Source: a virus
Taxonomy: Duplodnaviria; Caudoviricetes
Virus record (IMG/VR): IMGVR_UViG_3300032280_000651
Span: 1 to 64,000 of that record
Reading direction: 5' to 3' (one strand)
DNA length: 64,000 nt
The notes below the pieces were generated by a model that did no database searches, had not been told where the DNA came from, and saw only the letters and a program-made list of their open reading frames with translations. Position 1 is the first letter of the stretch. Each line of letters opens with the position of its first letter. Below are positions 5,454 to 40,124 of the stretch, piece after piece. Both the position numbers and the translations under genes were made by a program.

Positions 5454-5555
5454 ATGAAAACAACTAATCTAAATATTAACTTAACGCTGAATGTCTTATG
5501 TCTAAGACAAAGACCGGGTTTTGCTATATTTAGAGCAAATGATTTTAGTTGGTAA
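5454..5555 (+). CDS. Attenuator leader peptide 1 (Leu/Arg), 33 aa
   Basis: MKTTNLNINLTLNVLCLRQRPGFAIFRANDFSW; 5 Leu (CTA, TTA, CTG, TTA, CTA) and 3 Arg (all AGA); lies between promoter and terminator. Confidence 0.8.
   Translation: MKTTNLNINLTLNVLCLRQRPGFAIFRANDFSW
5515..5523 (+). promoter_or_regulatory. Antiterminator strand of attenuator 1
   Basis: CGGGTTTTG is the exact reverse complement of CAAAACCCG (5584-5592), the 5' arm of the terminator. Confidence 0.7.
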
Positions 5556-5637: not shown

Positions 5638-5709
5638 GGCCTCATCGTTCAACGGATAGGACTAAAGCCTTCTAAGCTTTCAATCGGGGTTCGAATCCCT
5701 GTGGGGTCA
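5638..5709 (+). tRNA. tRNA-Arg(UCU)
   Basis: Cloverleaf; anticodon arm aaagc-CTTCTAA-gcttt; GGTTCGAATCC T-arm. Confidence 0.9.
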
Positions 5710-5721
5710 CAAAATAAATAT

Positions 5722-5817: not shown

Positions 5818-5898
5818 GCCCCGTTAGTTCCGACTGTCTTCTAAACAGTTAAGGATAATTGGACGCTGAAAATGTAGGTTCGAGTCCTACACGGGGTA
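5818..5898 (+). ncRNA. D-arm-less tRNA-like RNA, anticodon UCU (Arg)
   Basis: 7-bp acceptor, 8-nt linker instead of a D arm, actgt-CTTCTAA-acagt, 24-nt extra region, canonical T arm. Confidence 0.75.
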
Positions 5899-5909
5899 CA
5901 AAATCACTT

Positions 5910-5994
5910 GTCGGAGTGGTGGAATGGTAGACACGCAGGTCTTAAACACCTGTGCTCCGGAAGGGGCGTGAGGGTTCGAGTCCCTCCTCCGATA
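5910..5994 (+). tRNA. tRNA-Leu(UAA), second copy
   Basis: caggt-CTTAAAC-acctg; long variable arm. Confidence 0.9.
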
Positions 5995-6002
5995 CAATAT
6001 AT

Positions 6003-6085
6003 GCCGAGGTGGTGGAATGGTAGACACGCTGGTCTAAGAAGCCAGTGTCCGAAAGGACGTGCGGGTTCGAGTCCCGCTCTCGGTA
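6003..6085 (+). tRNA. tRNA-Leu(AAG)
   Basis: ctggt-CTAAGAA-gccag; variable arm gtcc-gaaa-ggac. Confidence 0.9.
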
Positions 6086-6090
6086 CAAAA

Positions 6091-6173
6091 GCACCAGTGG
6101 TGGAACTGGTATACACGGTGGCCTCAAAAGCTACTATCTATATGATGTGTGGGTTCGACTCCCACCTGGTGTA
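6091..6173 (+). tRNA. tRNA-Leu(CAA)
   Basis: gtggc-CTCAAAA-gctac. Confidence 0.9.
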
Positions 6174-6180
6174 CAAAAAT

Positions 6181-6263
6181 GCGGGTATGGGGGAATGGTA
6201 GACCCGCCAGATTTAGGATCTGGTGTCCGAAAGGACGTGTCGGTTCGAGTCCGACTACCCGTA
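6181..6263 (+). tRNA. tRNA-Leu(UAG)
   Basis: ccaga-TTTAGGA-tctgg; long variable arm. Confidence 0.9.
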
Positions 6264-6277
6264 CAAAAATTAAAAAT

Positions 6278-6502
6278 ATGAAACTAATTAAAGTTGAAGA
6301 TAAGATATATGAAGTGAAACCTTGTTTACATTGTAAGAAGGATGAAGTAGAATATGTCGAACAAGATCTTCCTTTTAATAATGAAGGATGGGCATGTAAT
6401 TATTGTGATTCAACATATGTGATTTTCAATACTGAGATAGCTGAAGATGTTACTCTTAGAGAAGAAAGAGAAGAAAAGTTAAAAAATATAATAAAAGATT
6501 AG
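6278..6502 (+). CDS. Small zinc-ribbon protein
   Basis: CLHC...CNYC; true start ATG 6278, since the ORF-track extension runs through tRNA genes. Confidence 0.7.
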   Translation: MKLIKVEDKIYEVKPCLHCKKDEVEYVEQDLPFNNEGWACNYCDSTYVIFNTEIAEDVTLREEREEKLKNIIKD

Positions 6503-6532
6503 GTAGTAGAACAAAAAAATATGATAATATTT

Positions 6533-6563
6533 TTTGTAGATTAAAAAACTTATAGTATATTTG
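6533..6563 (+). promoter_or_regulatory. Bacteroidota-type promoter of tRNA operon 2
   Basis: TTTG (6533-6536), 19 nt, TATATTTG (6556-6563). Confidence 0.7.
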
Positions 6564-6649
6564 TACTCTGTAATAATACAGAAAGTGTTTTACACTACTA
6601 TAATTAAAGAAAAACAAAAAGGGACAATAAAAATATAATATATAATACA

Positions 6650-6739
6650 ATGAAAACAAATACTATAAATATTAATGTGATTACGATTACGAATTGTGTG
6701 AATAGCACGACTTCGGGTAAGCGATTATGTATAGTATAA
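6650..6739 (+). CDS. Attenuator leader peptide 2 (Thr/Ile/Asn/Val/Cys), 29 aa
   Basis: MKTNTININVITITNCVNSTTSGKRLCIV; codons 3-18 are only T, N, I, V or C. Confidence 0.8.
   Translation: MKTNTININVITITNCVNSTTSGKRLCIV
6712..6718 (+). promoter_or_regulatory. Antiterminator strand of attenuator 2
   Basis: TTCGGGT is complementary to ACCCGAA (6768-6774) in the terminator 5' arm; can instead pair upstream in hairpin 6690-6715. Confidence 0.65.
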
Positions 6740-6763
6740 TGACATATATTATATACAATTTAT

Positions 6764-6800
6764 AAAGACCCGAACTCAAAAAGTTTGGGTCTTTTCTTTT
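6764..6800 (+). terminator. Intrinsic terminator of attenuator 2
   Basis: AAAGACCCGAAC-tcaaaaa-GTTTGGGTCTTT plus TCTTTT, 6 nt before the first tRNA. Confidence 0.85.
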
Positions 6801-6806
6801 ATATAT

Positions 6807-6878
6807 TCTCCTATGGTGAAATGGTTATCACGTCTGACTGTTAATCAGTTATTCCAGGTTCGAGTCCTGGTGGGAGAG
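6807..6878 (+). tRNA. tRNA-Asn(GUU)
   Basis: Loop CTGTTAA; G73. Confidence 0.9.
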
Positions 6879-6885
6879 CAAATAT

Positions 6886-6960
6886 TCCTCCGTAGCTATA
6901 ATGGTTTAGAGCGGCGTTTTGTTAAAGCGATGGTTACAGGTTCGAGTCCTGTCGGAGGAG
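6886..6960 (+). tRNA. tRNA-Asn(GUU), second copy
   Basis: Loop TTGTTAA; G73; 27:43 mismatch. Confidence 0.85.
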
Positions 6961-6969
6961 CAAATATAT

Positions 6970-7050
6970 TGGCACATACCAGCCCAACCTGATAAGTTGG
7001 AGAACTGTAAATGGTTGTTGAAAATGTGGGTTCAAATCCCTCTGTGCCAA
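6970..7050 (+). ncRNA. D-arm-less tRNA-like RNA, anticodon GAU (Ile)
   Basis: 7-bp acceptor, 7-nt linker, ccaac-CTGATAA-gttgg, 25-nt extra region ending TGAAAAT, T arm; same length and layout as 5818..5898. Confidence 0.75.
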
Positions 7051-7063
7051 CAAAAAAATATAT

Positions 7064-7149
7064 GGGACTGTGGTGTAGTTGGTTAAACATCCCACTCTTA
7101 CAAAGTGGAGACGAGAAGTATAACGTAGGTTCGAATCCTACCAGTCCTA
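7064..7149 (+). tRNA. tRNA-Val(UAC) with 16-nt variable region
   Basis: ccact-CTTACAA-agtgg. Confidence 0.85.
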
Positions 7150-7160
7150 CAAAAATACCT

Positions 7161-7235
7161 TGGTCGGTATATCAATTGGTTTAGATTATCACGCTGATAC
7201 CGTGAAGGTTGCGAGTTCGAGTCTCGCCCGACCAA
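7161..7235 (+). tRNA. tRNA-Ile(GAU)
   Basis: tcacg-CTGATAC-cgtga. Confidence 0.9.
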
Positions 7236-7301
7236 CAAAAAATTAAAGGTTCGAAACAGATGGAAGTGTCAATTTTTAATATATATAAATAAAAAACATA
7301 T

Positions 7302-8018
7302 ATGTTAAAAATAGAAAAATTACAATTAGAATTACTAATAGATAAAGGACTCTCTTTAAAAATTATTGCAGAAGAATTAAATATATCATATTCGACTATT
7401 AATAGACTATGTAATAAATATAATTTAAAGTCTAAATTTAATGAGTCAAAAAATGAACTAGTTAATTGTATTGAATGTGATATAGAATTTAATGGAAATA
7501 AAAAAGAAGAAAGAAAGTTTTGTAGTAGATCGTGTTCGGTTACTTATAATAATAGAATTAAAATTTTCACAGATGATACTAAACTAAAAATAAGTAATAC
7601 ATTAAAAAGTAGAAATAAAAAAGTAATTAAAATAAGACTATGTAAAAATTGTGATAATCTAGTTGGATATAAAAAAATAATATGTGATAGTTGTAGAGTA
7701 GATTATTATCAGTATTATAGACCAGCATCAAATTTCAATTTCGATATAAATCTCTACAAAGATAAGTTTGAACTTTCATTAGTTACTAAATATGGTTGGT
7801 ACAGCCCTTCAAATAAAGGTAATAACCTAAACGGTGTGAGTAAAGATCATTTATTTAGTGTTAAAGATGGTTTCGATAATAAAGTTAGTGTAGATCTAAT
7901 AAAACATCCGGCGAATTGTAAATTAATGATACATAAGGATAACCAAGTTAAAAATAGTAAAAGTGTAATAACACTAGAAGAATTGTTAAAAAGAATAGAA
8001 GAATGGAATAAGAAATAA
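7302..8018 (+). CDS. Putative HNH-like homing endonuclease inside tRNA array 2
   Basis: N-terminal HTH, CxxC zinc motifs, C-terminal SKDHLFS...HPANC...HKDNQVK His-Me finger. Confidence 0.65.
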   Translation: MLKIEKLQLELLIDKGLSLKIIAEELNISYSTINRLCNKYNLKSKFNESKNELVNCIECDIEFNGNKKEERKFCSRSCSVTYNNRIKIFTDDTKLKISNTLKSRNKKVIKIRLCKNCDNLVGYKKIICDSCRVDYYQYYRPASNFNFDINLYKDKFELSLVTKYGWYSPSNKGNNLNGVSKDHLFSVKDGFDNKVSVDLIKHPANCKLMIHKDNQVKNSKSVITLEELLKRIEEWNKK

Positions 8019-8020
8019 AT

Positions 8021-8108
8021 GGTATAGTGCCTGAGTGGTCGAAAGGTGCGGTCTGCAAAACCGTAATGATTAATTTCATCATCGTGGGTTCAAATCCTAC
8101 CTATACCT
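8021..8108 (+). tRNA. tRNA-Cys(GCA) with long variable arm
   Basis: gcggt-CTGCAAA-accgt; U73; variable stem atga/tcat. Confidence 0.85.
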
Positions 8109-8112
8109 CAAA

Positions 8113-8284: not shown

Positions 8285-8364
8285 GCTGGTGTCGCATAGT
8301 GGCCGATTGCACCTACCTTGTAAGTAGGAATTCCACACCGCAGGTTCGAATCCTGTCACTAGCT
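8285..8364 (+). tRNA. tRNA-Thr(UGU)
   Basis: cctac-CTTGTAA-gtagg; 11-nt variable loop. Confidence 0.85.
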
Positions 8365-8369
8365 CTGAA

Positions 8370-17097: not shown

Positions 17098-17169
17098 TGG
17101 AGTATCGTATAATGGTAATTATTCAGGGTGTTGGCCCCTGCGATTTGGGTTCGAATCCTAATACTCTAA
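17098..17169 (+). tRNA. tRNA-Gln(UUG) with G33
   Basis: caggg-TGTTGGC-ccctg. Confidence 0.75.
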
Positions 17170-17175
17170 CAAATA

Positions 17176-17261
17176 CTAGGCATTGGGCAGAGGCTATACC
17201 CACCTGATTTGGGATCAGGATTCTTAACAGATAATCGTCAGTTCGAATCTGACTGCTTAGA
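17176..17261 (+). tRNA. tRNA-Pro(UGG) with 17-nt variable region
   Basis: cctga-TTTGGGA-tcagg. Confidence 0.8.
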
Positions 17262-17268
17262 CAAAAAT

Positions 17269-17357
17269 AGTCGTGTGGTGGCAAAGGTTGCCGACCTGCC
17301 TGTCACGCAGGGTTGTCTTCGGACATTGATATGCCGGTTCGAGTCCGGTCACGACTG
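17269..17357 (+). tRNA. tRNA-Asp(GUC) with long variable arm
   Basis: cctgc-CTGTCAC-gcagg; G73; variable hairpin tgtc-TTCG-gaca. Confidence 0.8.
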
Positions 17358-17365
17358 CAATATAC

Positions 17366-17439
17366 TGGAGTATCGTATAATGGCATAATTACACTGCGTT
17401 TTGACCGCAGCAACATAGGTTCGATTCCTATTACTCCAA
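17366..17439 (+). tRNA. tRNA-Gln(UUG)
   Basis: ctgcg-TTTTGAC-cgcag. Confidence 0.85.
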
Positions 17440-17448
17440 CAAAAATAA

Positions 17449-17522
17449 CGCGTAACGATCCACAGAGAGAGGTTACCCGACTTGGTATCGGGGTTATTGT
17501 CAGTTCGAGTCTGACTTACGCG
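17449..17522 (+). tRNA. tRNA-Pro(UGG), divergent D arm and U37
   Basis: cccga-CTTGGTA-tcggg; gtcag-TTCGAGT-ctgac. Confidence 0.7.
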
Positions 17523-17528
17523 ACGAAA

Positions 17529-17601
17529 TAGTGCTGTAGCTCAGTGGAAGAGTGTCTGGTTGTCGCCCAGAAGGTCGCGGGTTCAATCCCCGTCAGTACT
17601 G
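17529..17601 (+). tRNA. tRNA-Asp(GUC)
   Basis: tctgg-TTGTCGC-ccaga; G73. Confidence 0.85.
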
Positions 17602-17663
17602 CAATTTCGATTCCGATAGGGACCGATAATTATTTAATATATATAATAAAATAATTATTTATT

Positions 17664-18550: not shown

Positions 18551-18683
18551 GGTAGTGTTAGCACTAAAGTCAGAGATTTAATCGGATGACGGGATTATAT
18601 GATAATGTGAGTTATGTAATTCTAGGAATGGGTGCACCTTGAGGAGGAAATCACATTTGCTGGTTCGAGTCCAGCCACTACCG
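18551..18683 (+). ncRNA. 133-nt tRNA-like RNA with expanded interior
   Basis: ggtagtg/cactacc acceptor plus gctgg-TTCGAGT-ccagc T arm; interior stems gtca/tgac and aatgtga/tcacatt; no 7-nt anticodon loop. Confidence 0.6.
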
Positions 18684-39065: not shown

Positions 39066-40124
39066 ATGAAATATAAAGTATTATTTATACACGCAAATAA
39101 CTCCTTAGCTCTTTTTAAAGAAAAAGTAGAGAAAACCACCACCGATAGACAGGAATCAAATGATTATTTAACTGATGCAATTTATTTAGAATTAAAAGGT
39201 AGAAGTGACTTTGATGTATATGATTGTCCTGCCATGTTACATATGTATTCAGAATCCATAACCGATATAAATAATATAACGGGATTCGGATTTGCACTCA
39301 GAAAAAAGTTGAAAGGTGAACCAAATTCTCTAAACTTAGAGGAAACTATTTCAAAAATAGAAGATAACTTTTTTGACTTAATAATCACCGACTCTAGAAC
39401 AATGAATCAATGGTGGTCTGATAGAGGACTATCACCATTTTATGAACATGCTAAGATACTTAAAGATAATATACTTAGATATTATCCAAAAAATAAAATT
39501 ATACTTTTAGATGGAGAAGATCAACCAGAATCAATCTTATCAGATTTTTATGGTAAATGTTTATACTTTAAAAGAGAGTTGAGATATAATGACGATAATC
39601 TAATCCCAATTGGATATTGTTTTCCTCAACAATATTTTAGAAAATCAACAATTGAAGATAAGATTAGGTCAGTTGCTACTTGTCGACCTTGGGAAAAAAA
39701 CACATATATTTTTAATAATGAGAATGACTTCTATGAGGATTATAGAACTTCTTTCTTCGGATTAACTTGTAAAAAATTAGGATGGGATTGTTTTAGACAT
39801 CACGAAATTATATTCTCATCTTGTTTACCAATATTTCCTGATGTTGATAATTGTCCTGTATATACAATGACTCAGTATCCTAAGGATATATGTAAAAAGA
39901 TTTTAAAAATGGATGTATTAAAGGATATAAATTTCTCCAAGAATTGGATATCATACCCACCAGATTTTGTAGATGGATTATATAAGTATAATCTACCACA
40001 TATTGATGTTGATAGAATTAACATCAACCAATATCAAGAATTACTTGATGAGATTCTAGAATTCTCATTTAATAATAACTCATCAAAAAAAGTTGTTGAT
40101 TATATACTAAATTTTACAAAATAA
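39066..40124 (+). CDS. Putative glycosyltransferase
   Basis: LDGED, YFKRE, GWDCFRHHEI. Confidence 0.55.
   Translation: MKYKVLFIHANNSLALFKEKVEKTTTDRQESNDYLTDAIYLELKGRSDFDVYDCPAMLHMYSESITDINNITGFGFALRKKLKGEPNSLNLEETISKIEDNFFDLIITDSRTMNQWWSDRGLSPFYEHAKILKDNILRYYPKNKIILLDGEDQPESILSDFYGKCLYFKRELRYNDDNLIPIGYCFPQQYFRKSTIEDKIRSVATCRPWEKNTYIFNNENDFYEDYRTSFFGLTCKKLGWDCFRHHEIIFSSCLPIFPDVDNCPVYTMTQYPKDICKKILKMDVLKDINFSKNWISYPPDFVDGLYKYNLPHIDVDRININQYQELLDEILEFSFNNNSSKKVVDYILNFTK

Follow-up and report, generated by a model that had tools for sequence, protein, structure and literature searches.

Two elements of 81 nt, present at positions 5818-5898 (anticodon UCU) and 6970-7050 (GAU) of the window, that is, of the whole 64,000-nt stretch of a viral contig analysed here, are probably working elongator tRNA genes, tRNA-Arg(UCU) and tRNA-Ile(GAU), with a rewired core. 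Judging by their sequences, they are members of a structural class that is widespread in phages. In the fold predicted for this class, the four-way junction of the cloverleaf is replaced by a three-way one, and the place of the D arm is taken by helices fused onto the anticodon stem. To our knowledge, tRNAs of the bacterial type have been thought always to be cloverleaves. A literature search, with incomplete coverage, yielded no description of an architecture with a rewired D arm, and the phage family of rewired Arg and Ile tRNAs apparently is undescribed so far.

Layout and detection of the two elements

The common layout, as given in an earlier note on this DNA, was borne out: each element comprises a 7-bp acceptor stem with a discriminator, 7-8 nt at the usual place of the D arm, and a clean anticodon hairpin, followed on the 3' side by a segment with AAUUGG or AAAUGG, by TGAAAAT, and by the T arm. 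The anticodon loops, CUUCUAA in the UCU element and CUGAUAA in the GAU element, have 7 nt, U33, and a purine at position 37. Both T arms consist of a 5-bp stem and a 7-nt loop agreeing with GUUCRANYC, with one U.U mismatch in the GAU element. The base following GG is A in the UCU element (GGA) and U in the GAU element (GGU). For the pattern TGAAAATGNNGGTTCRANTCC, two occurrences were counted in the window, 0.01 being expected.

ARAGORN called neither element. The Rfam tRNA model RF00005 (gathering threshold 29 bits) accepted both, at 34.4-40.5 bits for the UCU element and 34.5 bits for the GAU element, the canonical neighbours scoring 50-64 bits; in the fit, 13-15 positions of the D arm are skipped, and 21-22 nt are placed as an insertion in the variable region. 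A canonical D arm, with a 3-4 bp stem between position 9 and the anticodon arm, is absent from both, and the loop with GG is found on the 3' side of the anticodon arm. Similarly, instead of a canonical variable region (4-5 nt or a class II hairpin) there are helix strands, a bulge, and a connector, with no hairpin. In single-sequence minimum free energy folds the core pairings were inconsistent (for 6970-7050, z = -1.2).

Relatives were collected by pattern scans of viral contigs and by a covariance model (R1). The UCU element, itself a member of the training set, scored 85 bits with this model, and the GAU element, absent from the training set, 56.5 bits, compared to at most 29 bits for canonical tRNAs in the window and 29-37 bits or less for canonical tRNAs overall. 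Both elements display the family features, that is, helices H1 and H2 around a UAAYUGGN bulge, a UGNAAAU connector, and a 6-bp anticodon stem (Table 1). A related contig carries a copy identical to 6970-7050, as well as a copy of the Arg element that differs from 5818-5898 by compensatory changes. A BLAST search of the 3.1-kb array against cultured phages returned generic tRNA matches only.

In the long open reading frames of the window, AGA accounts for 82% of Arg codons, and ATT and ATC together for 57% of Ile codons. The leader ORFs upstream contain 3 Arg codons (all AGA) and 5 Leu codons for the Arg element, and 5 Ile codons for the Ile element.

Table 1. Coordinates of the two candidate rewired tRNA genes, their predicted structural parts, and the canonical tRNAs of the same array
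Feature	Position	Strand	Details
Rewired tRNA-Arg(UCU), whole gene (candidate)	5818..5898	+	81 nt; B-type family member
Arg element, acceptor 5' strand	5818..5824	+	pairs with 5891-5897; discriminator A at 5898; no CCA encoded
Arg element, U8 A9 and 5' strands of H1 and H2	5825..5831	+	U8 A9 invariant
Arg element, H1	5827-5828		pairs with 5865-5866
Arg element, H2	5829-5831		pairs with 5853-5855
Arg element, anticodon arm	5832..5850	+	6-bp stem, 5832-5837 with 5845-5850
Arg element, anticodon loop	5838-5844		CUUCUAA; anticodon UCU at 5840-5842
Arg element, 3' strand	5851..5866	+	2-nt bulge AA at 5851-5852, then H2 3' strand at 5853-5855
Arg element, D-loop-like bulge	5856-5864		UAAUUGGAC; G18G19-like GG and A20-like A; H1 3' strand at 5865-5866
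Arg element, connector	5867-5873	+	UGAAAAU
Arg element, T arm		+	canonical; stem 5874-5878 with 5886-5890, loop UUCGAGU
Rewired tRNA-Ile(GAU), whole gene (candidate)	6970..7050	+	81 nt; Ile-type member
Ile element, acceptor 5' strand	6970-6976	+	pairs with 7043-7049; discriminator A at 7050; U8 at 6977
Ile element, H1 5' strand	6978-6979		pairs with 7017-7018
Ile element, H2 5' strand	6980-6982		pairs with 7005-7007
Ile element, anticodon arm	6984..7000	+	stem 6984-6988 with 6996-7000
Ile element, anticodon loop	6989-6995		CUGAUAA; anticodon GAU at 6991-6993
Ile element, 3' internal loop	7001-7004	+	AGAA
Ile element, H2 3' strand	7005-7007	+	
Ile element, D-loop-like bulge	7008-7016		UAAAUGGUU; U after GG; H1 3' strand at 7017-7018
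Ile element, connector	7019-7025		UGAAAAU
Ile element, T arm	7026-7042		U.U mismatch 7027/7041
Canonical tRNA-Arg(UCU), same array (context)	5638..5710	+	ARAGORN; RF00005, 54 bits
Canonical tRNA-Ile(GAU), same array (context)	7161..7236	+	ARAGORN; RF00005, 60 bits

Covariation and distribution of the family

The search with a covariance model, proposed earlier as a check and run here on viral sequences, recovered homologs with covarying stems: we found about 190 distinct relatives (188 unique covariance-model matches in 200 viral loci), 76-82 nt in length and coming from many environments and hosts. Nearly all of them are situated in phage tRNA arrays, and 270 of the 272 neighbouring tRNAs lie on the same strand. 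Since the homologs keep the fold via compensatory changes, the view that the architecture is conserved rather than decayed was upheld.

In the MAFFT alignment of 35 Arg members (A1), 94.9% of cells are paired, compared to 62.7% after shuffling, and the covariation score is 0.90, compared to 0.25 for shuffled alignments and at most 0.17 for slid registers. For the Ile alignment (A2), 97.9% of cells are paired, and the covariation score is 0.82, compared to 0.21 after shuffling. The acceptor stem covaries in both alignments, with 99% of cells paired. Two-sided changes occur in both H1 and H2 in A1: the pair 10-50 is GC in 22 members, AU in 12 and UA in one, the pair 11-49 is CG in 20, UA in seven and AU in two, and the pair 13-38 is GC in 22 and AU and CG in six each; the window Arg element itself has U12-A39 in place of the usual C-G. 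The same holds for A2, where the pair 10-51 is CG in 11 members and UA in four, the pair 13-39 is AU and GC in seven each and CG in two, and the pair 14-37 is GC in eight, AU in five and CG in three. The same fold, with H1, H2, and the anticodon stem, was independently obtained by RNAalifold, and every one of the top mutual-information pairs is a helix pair of the model. Thus, what had been described as a 7-8 nt linker does occupy the place of the D arm, but it is not an unpaired replacement loop, since it forms H1 and H2 with the segments flanking GG, and these pairings covary.

UAA..GGA is invariant across the 66 B-type members, the connector consensus UGNAAAU persists in searches whose pattern omits it, and G53, U54, U55, C56, A58, and C61 of the T arm are invariant, strong G-C pairs being kept in the T stem at 49-65, 52-62, and 53-61. 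Mutual information with APC correction, applied to tertiary pairs and triples of the Levitt type, gave nothing beyond the helices, as the core (U8, A9, UAA, GG, UGNAAAU) is invariant and hence carries no tertiary covariation signal. H1 comprises just 2 bp, or possibly four if U8 and A9 pair with the UG of the connector as well (U8.G and A9-U, all at invariant positions). RNAalifold predicts this extension, variant connectors gave mixed signals, and, if the extension is modelled correctly, the A and B subtypes would share one structure.

Three other folds were considered and rejected, namely, a canonical cloverleaf whose D arm is weak, a class II hairpin in the variable region, and a permuted gene restored by splicing, as in each case the covariation backs H1 and H2 in the unrearranged order of the sequence. 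Only 0-2 nt are free to serve as a 22-25 strand.

The family also has cultured carriers, namely, T5-like Vibrio phages, the Microbacterium phages Pumpernickel and Zooman, and an Alishewanella phage, and hence the question of function is directly testable. In Vibrio phage vB_VpS_PG07 the element is located at about 39749-39828 of NC_048041, and in Pumpernickel at 100456-100533 of NC_073468. The copies in the Vibrio and Microbacterium phages are unannotated in the curated records, and the copy in the Alishewanella phage is mislabelled as tRNA-Ser. In a scan of bacterial genome contigs, nine of the 120 matches are family members, mostly in tRNA arrays on contigs of metagenome-assembled genomes, the others being canonical tRNAs that fit the pattern by chance. 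An all-versus-all BLAST of 1403 ORFs within 4 kb of the members at 149 loci revealed no dedicated protein partner; the commonest neighbour cluster, a homing-endonuclease-like DUF559 protein, is found at 44 of the 149 loci at a variable distance. Repair and modification genes are scattered among the neighbouring ORFs, and some loci contain tRNA repair genes, for example, an Rnl1-like ligase and a kinase-like AAA_33 protein.

Identity nucleotides and the probable role

Apart from one Lys member, the anticodons belong to Arg (87%) and Ile (13%). The Arg anticodons are UCU (n = 90), ACG (n = 32), UCG (n = 27), CCU (n = 12), GCG (n = 1), and CCG (n = 1); the Ile ones are GAU (n = 13), UAU (n = 10), and CAU (n = 1). 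The anticodon loops are canonical throughout the family, carrying U33 and, in most cases, A37. After GG, 143 of the 146 Arg members have A, and 26 of the 27 Ile members have U (13 of 14 in scans that left this base unconstrained). Bacterial ArgRS has A20 as its main determinant (PMC9976931), and the A of the Arg members, if aligned as proposed here, matches this determinant. The discriminator is A in the Ile members without exception; about a quarter of the Arg members have U, unlike A/G73 listed for arginine identity. CCA is encoded directly after the discriminator in 77 of 150 members. At all 41 non-redundant loci with at least two members these carry different anticodons, and some loci hold full Arg sets. 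Pumpernickel has 41 annotated tRNAs, including Arg tRNAs with ACG, CCG, and CCU and none with UCU, and its unannotated rewired gene carries UCU, being the only UCU tRNA of that phage; this copy thus appears to fill the missing slot of a near-complete tRNA set.

The secondary structure shown by the comparative analysis is as follows. The acceptor stem and the T arm are canonical, and U8 and A9 are followed by a composite arm built of H1 (2 bp, possibly 4), the 3-bp H2, and the 6-bp anticodon stem with its 7-nt loop. The returning 3' strand has two bulges, the first of 2 nt and the second of 8-9 nt, UAAYUGGN; the latter has the sequence of a D loop (A14 A15 Y16 U17 G18 G19 N20), and the conserved UGNAAAU connector joins the composite arm to the T stem. 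As to the mechanism, the GG of the bulge may still dock on the T loop, the base that follows GG may be read as position 20 (A for ArgRS, U in Ile members), and the composite arm, with 11-12 stacked pairs, may keep the distance from the anticodon to CCA near that of an L-shaped tRNA; both the docking and the preserved overall length are conjectures. With docking, position-20 reading, and length kept, the RNA would undergo processing and charging, bind EF-Tu, and take part in translation on the host ribosome. In the AT-rich phage, the two elements would decode the dominant Arg codon (AGA) and the main Ile codons (AUU/AUC), acting alongside the canonical copies in the same attenuator-controlled operons.

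The adaptor role suggested in the earlier note is indirectly supported by the identity nucleotides, the encoded CCA, the same-strand arrays, the complementary anticodons, and the Pumpernickel UCU slot, whereas its alternative, a decoy, is disfavoured, and we consider it improbable. A mimic of tRNA-Arg or tRNA-Ile that soaks up a host tRNA nuclease, synthetase, or modification enzyme, with no role in translation, would fit the window, where each element indeed has a canonical tRNA with the same anticodon as a neighbour; such redundancy with canonical isoacceptors would also be predicted for a decoy or a specialised role. It would further agree with the ability of phage tRNAs to counter tRNA-directed defences (PMC11464382, PMC10264068, PMC12445682) and with the tRNA repair genes at some family loci. 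However, a canonical same-anticodon partner is present in the arrays of 21.8% of members, about as often as for ordinary tRNAs there (25%), and hence the pairing seen in the window is not a family trait; the remaining 78% lack such a partner in arrays of at least eight tRNAs. The copies at 41 of 41 multi-copy loci hold different, complementary anticodons, the Pumpernickel copy is not redundant, and a decoy for anticodon nucleases would not need a covarying acceptor, an encoded CCA, an amino-acid-specific discriminator, or a position-20-like base.

Charging with Arg or Ile followed by diversion from the ribosome to a phage enzyme, or use as a primer or recognition element, seems very unlikely. 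Having an architecture of its own for just two amino acids, the family recalls the non-proteinogenic tRNA isoacceptors, the comparison being with cell-wall tRNA-Gly and with tRNA-dependent DNA hypermodification; tRNA-dependent modification of phage DNA has reportedly been described in one study. But no protein family accompanies the elements, the T stem keeps its strong G-C pairs, and the anticodons cover the entire Arg box and follow codon families, which is relevant to decoding and not to a donor. Least probable is that the elements are decayed pseudogenes, or mere processing punctuation in tRNA operons, and are themselves functionless. While standard tRNA finders reject them and curated phage records leave them unannotated, five helices are maintained by compensatory changes in about 190 distinct sequences, which contradicts decay, the loop motifs are invariant, and both the discriminator and the base following GG correlate with the anticodon.

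As for why a rewired core would be kept in working tRNAs, our leading guess is escape from a host factor that reads the canonical D arm or core, and plain inheritance within mobile phage tRNA arrays is possible. The most extended account, in our opinion rather doubtful as a whole, is that of an undescribed natural class of functional phage tRNA in which the rewired D arm is part of the anticodon arm, the junction is three-way, and the D loop is a bulge. This class would have arisen in tRNA-Arg and spread to Ile and once to Lys by switches of the anticodon and position 20, would work with ordinary bacterial synthetases, EF-Tu, and ribosomes, and would be maintained by escape from tRNA-directed defence nucleases or other factors reading the D arm or core.

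If the rewired tRNAs are functional, bacterial translation naturally accepts a three-way-junction tRNA, which bears on tRNA evolution, on the reading of the elbow by ArgRS and IleRS, and on orthogonal tRNA design. In the same case, standard annotation misses or mislabels the Arg and Ile tRNAs of many phages, thus distorting analyses of phage codon compensation.

Comparison with known tRNA forms

The phage elements share with canonical tRNA-Arg and tRNA-Ile (RF00005) the 7-bp acceptor with a discriminator, the GUUCRANYC T arm, the 7-nt anticodon loop, the GG motif, the A20-like base in Arg members, the location in phage arrays, and the often encoded CCA. They differ in that positions 9 and 26 do not enclose a D hairpin, a D-loop-like bulge lies 3' of the anticodon arm at a three-way junction, the 6-bp anticodon stem is accompanied by two further helices, and the UGNAAAU connector stands where the variable loop would be.

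In a review of non-canonical tRNAs, D-arm-less forms are described in mitochondria only, phages and viruses being absent (PMC7609411). Such tRNAs, for example mammalian mt-tRNA-Ser(AGY) and the D-armless tRNA-Ser of nematodes, have been shown in mitochondria to be adaptors, and, like the phage forms, they lack a conventional D hairpin and have an extended anticodon arm (PMC7609411). However, they are shortened, have lost the G18G19 and T-loop motifs, and need adapted EF-Tu and enzymes (PMC7609411), whereas the phage forms are longer than normal, retain GG, a TΨC-type T loop, and A20, and would have to work with ordinary bacterial machinery. The window elements, 81 nt in length, with GG and UUCRANU kept, and located on a viral contig, thus differ from the truncated organellar type.

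tRNA-Sec with its 8/5 fold, tRNA-Pyl, and allo-tRNAs are likewise functional despite departing from the 7/5 cloverleaf (PMC7609411). Still, all of them have four arms in the normal order, and in none is the D loop moved 3' of the anticodon arm. The anticodon stem of tRNA-Pyl also has 6 bp.

Phage tRNAs that resist defence include the T5 tRNA-Lys acting against PARIS (PMC11464382), a phage tRNA-Thr acting against P2 OLD (PMC12445682), and anticodon-loop variants (PMC10264068). Similarly to the elements considered here, they are phage replacements for host isoacceptors, and they can become resistant to nucleases through altered structure, for example, through shortening of the anticodon stem. 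These are, however, canonical cloverleaves with point or stem-length changes, backed by experimental proof, whereas here the whole core is rewired; the evasion hypothesis for the rewired tRNAs draws on this functional analogy.

The order of segments is also rearranged in the circularly permuted tRNA genes of Cyanidioschyzon merolae, where the mature tRNA is canonical after processing. In the phage forms, in contrast, covariation supports the rearranged order as that of the folded RNA.

A large family of rewired tRNA genes

The window (GC content 28.7%) covers 64 kb from the start of a viral contig in IMG/VR that is 79 kb long; with a CheckV completeness of approximately 28%, the contig represents part of a large phage genome. 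The tRNA genes form arrays at 5.6–8.4 kb and 17.1–17.6 kb; the 19 tRNAs called by ARAGORN in the window do not include two elements, rewired tRNA-Arg (element 1) and tRNA-Ile (element 2). Sequence inspection confirmed for both of them the layout described in an earlier note: an acceptor stem of 7 bp, a short segment in place of the D arm, a clean anticodon hairpin (loop CUUCUAA with anticodon UCU in element 1; CUGAUAA with GAU in element 2), followed by an AAUUGG or AAAUGG stretch, TGAAAAT, the T arm, and the discriminator A.

The connector (UGNAAAU, preceding the T arm) together with the T-arm pattern occurs twice in the window, versus 0.01 expected. Both elements score above the threshold of the Rfam tRNA model (34–40 bits, compared to 50–64 bits for the canonical neighbours), the fit requiring deletion of 13–15 D-arm positions and insertion of 21–22 nt in the variable region.

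The exact connector and T-arm motif was found in at least 119 viral loci, and approximately 85% of the matches listed had the whole odd layout. When only GTAANTGGA and the T arm served as anchors in viral contigs, and the 7-nt connector was left unconstrained, it was UGNAAAU in nearly all matches listed (TGAAAAT, 49/92; TGTAAAT, 12/92; TGCAAAT, 11/92). A covariance model, R1, built on 35 members, yielded 223 family matches in the first 200 viral loci listed, many of them fitting neither pattern; 188 of these homologues, recovered by the kind of search suggested in the earlier note, are unique. Both elements belong to this large family. Element 1, a training member of R1, scored 85 bits; element 2, outside the training set, 56.5 bits; and every canonical tRNA of the window, at most 29 bits. 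On a related contig, L100, the copy of element 2 is identical, and the homologue of element 1 differs through compensatory changes.

Features of the window and of other phage loci (window positions unless a locus is named)
Feature	Position	Strand	Remarks
Leader ORF 1	5454-5555		5 Leu, 3 Arg (AGA)
tRNA-Arg(UCU), canonical	5638-5710
Element 1	5818-5898	+	81 nt
Leader ORF 2	6650-6739		5 Ile, 6 Thr, 5 Asn, 3 Val, 2 Cys
Element 2	6970-7050	+	81 nt
tRNA-Val	7064-7150
tRNA-Ile(GAU), canonical	7161-7236
ORF within tRNA array	7302-8018	+	238 aa, repeated CxxC modules; similar (E 3e-8) to N-terminal part of a DUF559-nuclease, homing-endonuclease-like family
tRNA-Cys	8021-8109
tRNA-Thr	8285-8365
Gln-Pro-Asp block, first copy	17098-17358
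tRNA-Pro	17176-17262
tRNA-Asp	17269-17358
Gln-Pro-Asp block, second copy	17366-17602
Rejected family candidate	18610-18683		Weak R1 match, 14.3 bits
ACG member	L067 918-1008	-	91 nt; ~13 extra nt between GG motif and T arm
Lys-anticodon member	L074 11003-11080	-	CUU; Ile-like body (GGU, discriminator A)
Slicko01 variant	L401 1195-1273 (OQ508956.1 17417-17495)		UCU; shorter connector (UAGAU)

Covariation and the predicted fold

In the MAFFT alignment of 35 Arg members (A1; mean column identity 72%), the proposed structure comprises the acceptor stem, two short helices stacked on the anticodon stem, H1 (positions 10–11 with the 2 nt immediately 5' of the connector) and H2 (positions 12–14 with the 3 nt immediately 5' of UAAYUGG), the 6-bp anticodon stem, and the T stem. 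Paired cells make up 94.9%, versus 62.7% in shuffles, and the covariation score is 0.90 versus 0.25 in shuffled alignments and at most 0.17 in slid registers. Two-sided changes are seen in the pair counts of both H1 (10–50: GC 22, AU 12, UA 1; 11–49: CG 20, UA 7, AU 2) and H2 (13–38: GC 22, AU 6, CG 6), and element 1 has U12–A39 where other members have an invariant C–G. The Ile-type alignment (A2; 17 sequences including element 2) is 97.9% paired, and its covariation score is 0.82 versus 0.21 shuffled. The same fold is independently reached by RNAalifold, which additionally pairs U8 and A9 with the UG at the start of the connector (U8.G, A9–U), these positions being invariant and hence carrying no covariation signal; the column pairs with the highest mutual information are all helix pairs of the model.

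Hence the compensatory changes in both alignments bear out the earlier view of a fold rearranged and conserved rather than decayed. The "linker" replacing the D arm was correctly described as to its length and place, but it is not unpaired, as its bases pair according to A1 covariation.

The predicted overall shape is a three-way junction at which the acceptor stem and the T arm meet a single long composite arm, which would run from the short H1 through H2 to the anticodon stem, 11–12 bp in total. Two bulges interrupt the 3' strand of this arm: one of 2 nt (A, N) and one of 8–9 nt, UAAYUGGN, the latter resembling a D loop in sequence (A14 A15 Y16 U17 G18 G19 N20). The family has three subtypes: A, with a 7-nt 5' segment and zero nucleotides between GGA and the connector (pairings read by eye); B, including element 1, with two extra, mutually paired nucleotides on each side; and the Ile type, including element 2.

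Anticodons, gene context and putative function

The anticodon was left unconstrained in every search pattern. Among the 188 unique matches, 87% have Arg anticodons (UCU 90, ACG 32, UCG 27, CCU 12, GCG 1, CCG 1), 13% have Ile anticodons (GAU 13, UAU 10, CAU 1), and a single one is Lys (CUU), the anticodon loops being canonical, e.g. CUACGAA with ACG. Arg members nearly always have A directly 3' of GG (143 of 146), and Ile members U (26 of 27; 13 of 14 in scans leaving that base free). As this base tracks the amino acid, and bacterial ArgRS recognises arginine tRNAs chiefly by A20 (PMC9976931), the relocated loop appears to retain an amino-acid-specific identity base. The discriminator is A in all Ile members, and CCA is encoded directly 3' of the discriminator in 77 of 150 members. 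One-nucleotide anticodon paths (UCU to UAU to GAU; CCU to CUU), plus the A-to-U change after GG, suggest a single origin in tRNA-Arg, and the Lys member suggests an alloacceptor switch.

Other tRNAs share the locus with 166 of 181 elements, and 270 of the 272 tRNAs lying within 500 nt have the same orientation as the rewired gene. The earlier observation of a canonical partner with the same anticodon holds for both elements in the window, but not as a family property: in arrays with at least eight canonical tRNAs, such partners accompany 21.8% of rewired genes versus 25% of ordinary tRNAs. Given these similar rates, rewired genes resemble the ordinary members of tRNA sets and are mostly non-redundant. 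Wherever a locus holds at least two rewired genes (41 non-redundant loci), their anticodons differ, and some of these loci carry whole Arg sets, e.g. CCU, GCG, UCG and UCU. Four rewired tRNAs reside on each of three single phage contigs; in two (L023, L040) they span most or all Arg codon boxes, and L074 combines three Arg anticodons with Lys-CUU. The annotation of Microbacterium phage Pumpernickel lists 41 tRNAs, among them Arg ACG (twice), CCG and CCU, with UCU missing; the UCU tRNA is an unannotated intergenic R1 match (69.6 bits). In the window phage, AGA constitutes 82% of Arg codons, and AUU with AUC, 57% of Ile codons.

The decoy role proposed earlier is a poor fit to the anticodons, identity bases, CCA, arrays, low redundancy and complementary multi-copy sets. 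Rather, sequence and context indirectly point to a putative function of family members as working tRNAs. Some phage tRNAs evade the PARIS, retron and OLD nucleases (PMC11464382, PMC11555353, PMC12445682, PMC10264068), and by analogy nuclease resistance of the rewired tRNAs is plausible.

The short leader ORFs precede two tRNA blocks, each ORF being followed by a terminator-like hairpin, and the residues in which their translations are rich correspond to downstream tRNAs. Among ORFs within 4 kb of the rewired tRNA at 149 loci, no conserved protein partner was found; the DUF559 homing-endonuclease-like family occurs in this range, at variable distance, in 44 of them. The Pumpernickel tRNA region (80–115 kb) encodes peptidyl-tRNA hydrolase, an RtcB-like RNA ligase, a Ro-like RNA-binding protein and an ADP-ribosyltransferase; an Rnl1-like ligase, a SpoU methylase and an AAA_33 kinase-like gene were seen at other loci. 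The variable loops of Val, Cys, Thr, Pro and Asp tRNAs are normally short; in the window these tRNAs are 81–90 nt long, with extra regions or hairpins of 13–20 nt between the anticodon and T arms, and several isoacceptors are represented by one ordinary and one unusual copy, as exemplified by the Gln-Pro-Asp block with its two copies.

Distribution and comparison with known tRNAs

Cultured carriers identified by BLAST are T5-like Vibrio phages (e.g. vB_VpS_PG07, 80.7 bits, anticodon ACG) and Microbacterium phages Pumpernickel and Zooman; Maribacter phage Panino matches partially. None of these records has a tRNA annotated at the site; in Zooman and Panino the match overlaps an annotated hypothetical-protein ORF, and other copies lie in unannotated stretches. 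The variant in Alishewanella phage Slicko01 is labelled 'tRNA-Ser' in GenBank despite its anticodon. ARAGORN detects 15 of 181 elements, about half of these calls having a wrong or undetermined identity. The Ile type is present in an uncultured 642-kb megaphage. In bacteria (one representative genome per species), only 9 of 120 pattern matches are family members, mostly within tRNA arrays on MAG contigs; thus, the family is chiefly viral or mobile.

Our full-text literature search, incomplete in coverage, retrieved no prior description of this rewired-D-arm architecture; phages are unmentioned in a 2020 review of natural non-canonical tRNAs (PMC7609411), and a 2024 paper gives the cloverleaf as the form of all known bacterial tRNAs. 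Compared to the cloverleaf, the elements are tRNA-like, exceeding the Rfam tRNA threshold, but lack two of its defining features, a D hairpin at the usual site and a normal variable region. Mitochondrial D-armless tRNAs are shorter, whereas the phage forms are longer, retain GG together with the T loop and position 20, and would have to work with the standard bacterial machinery.
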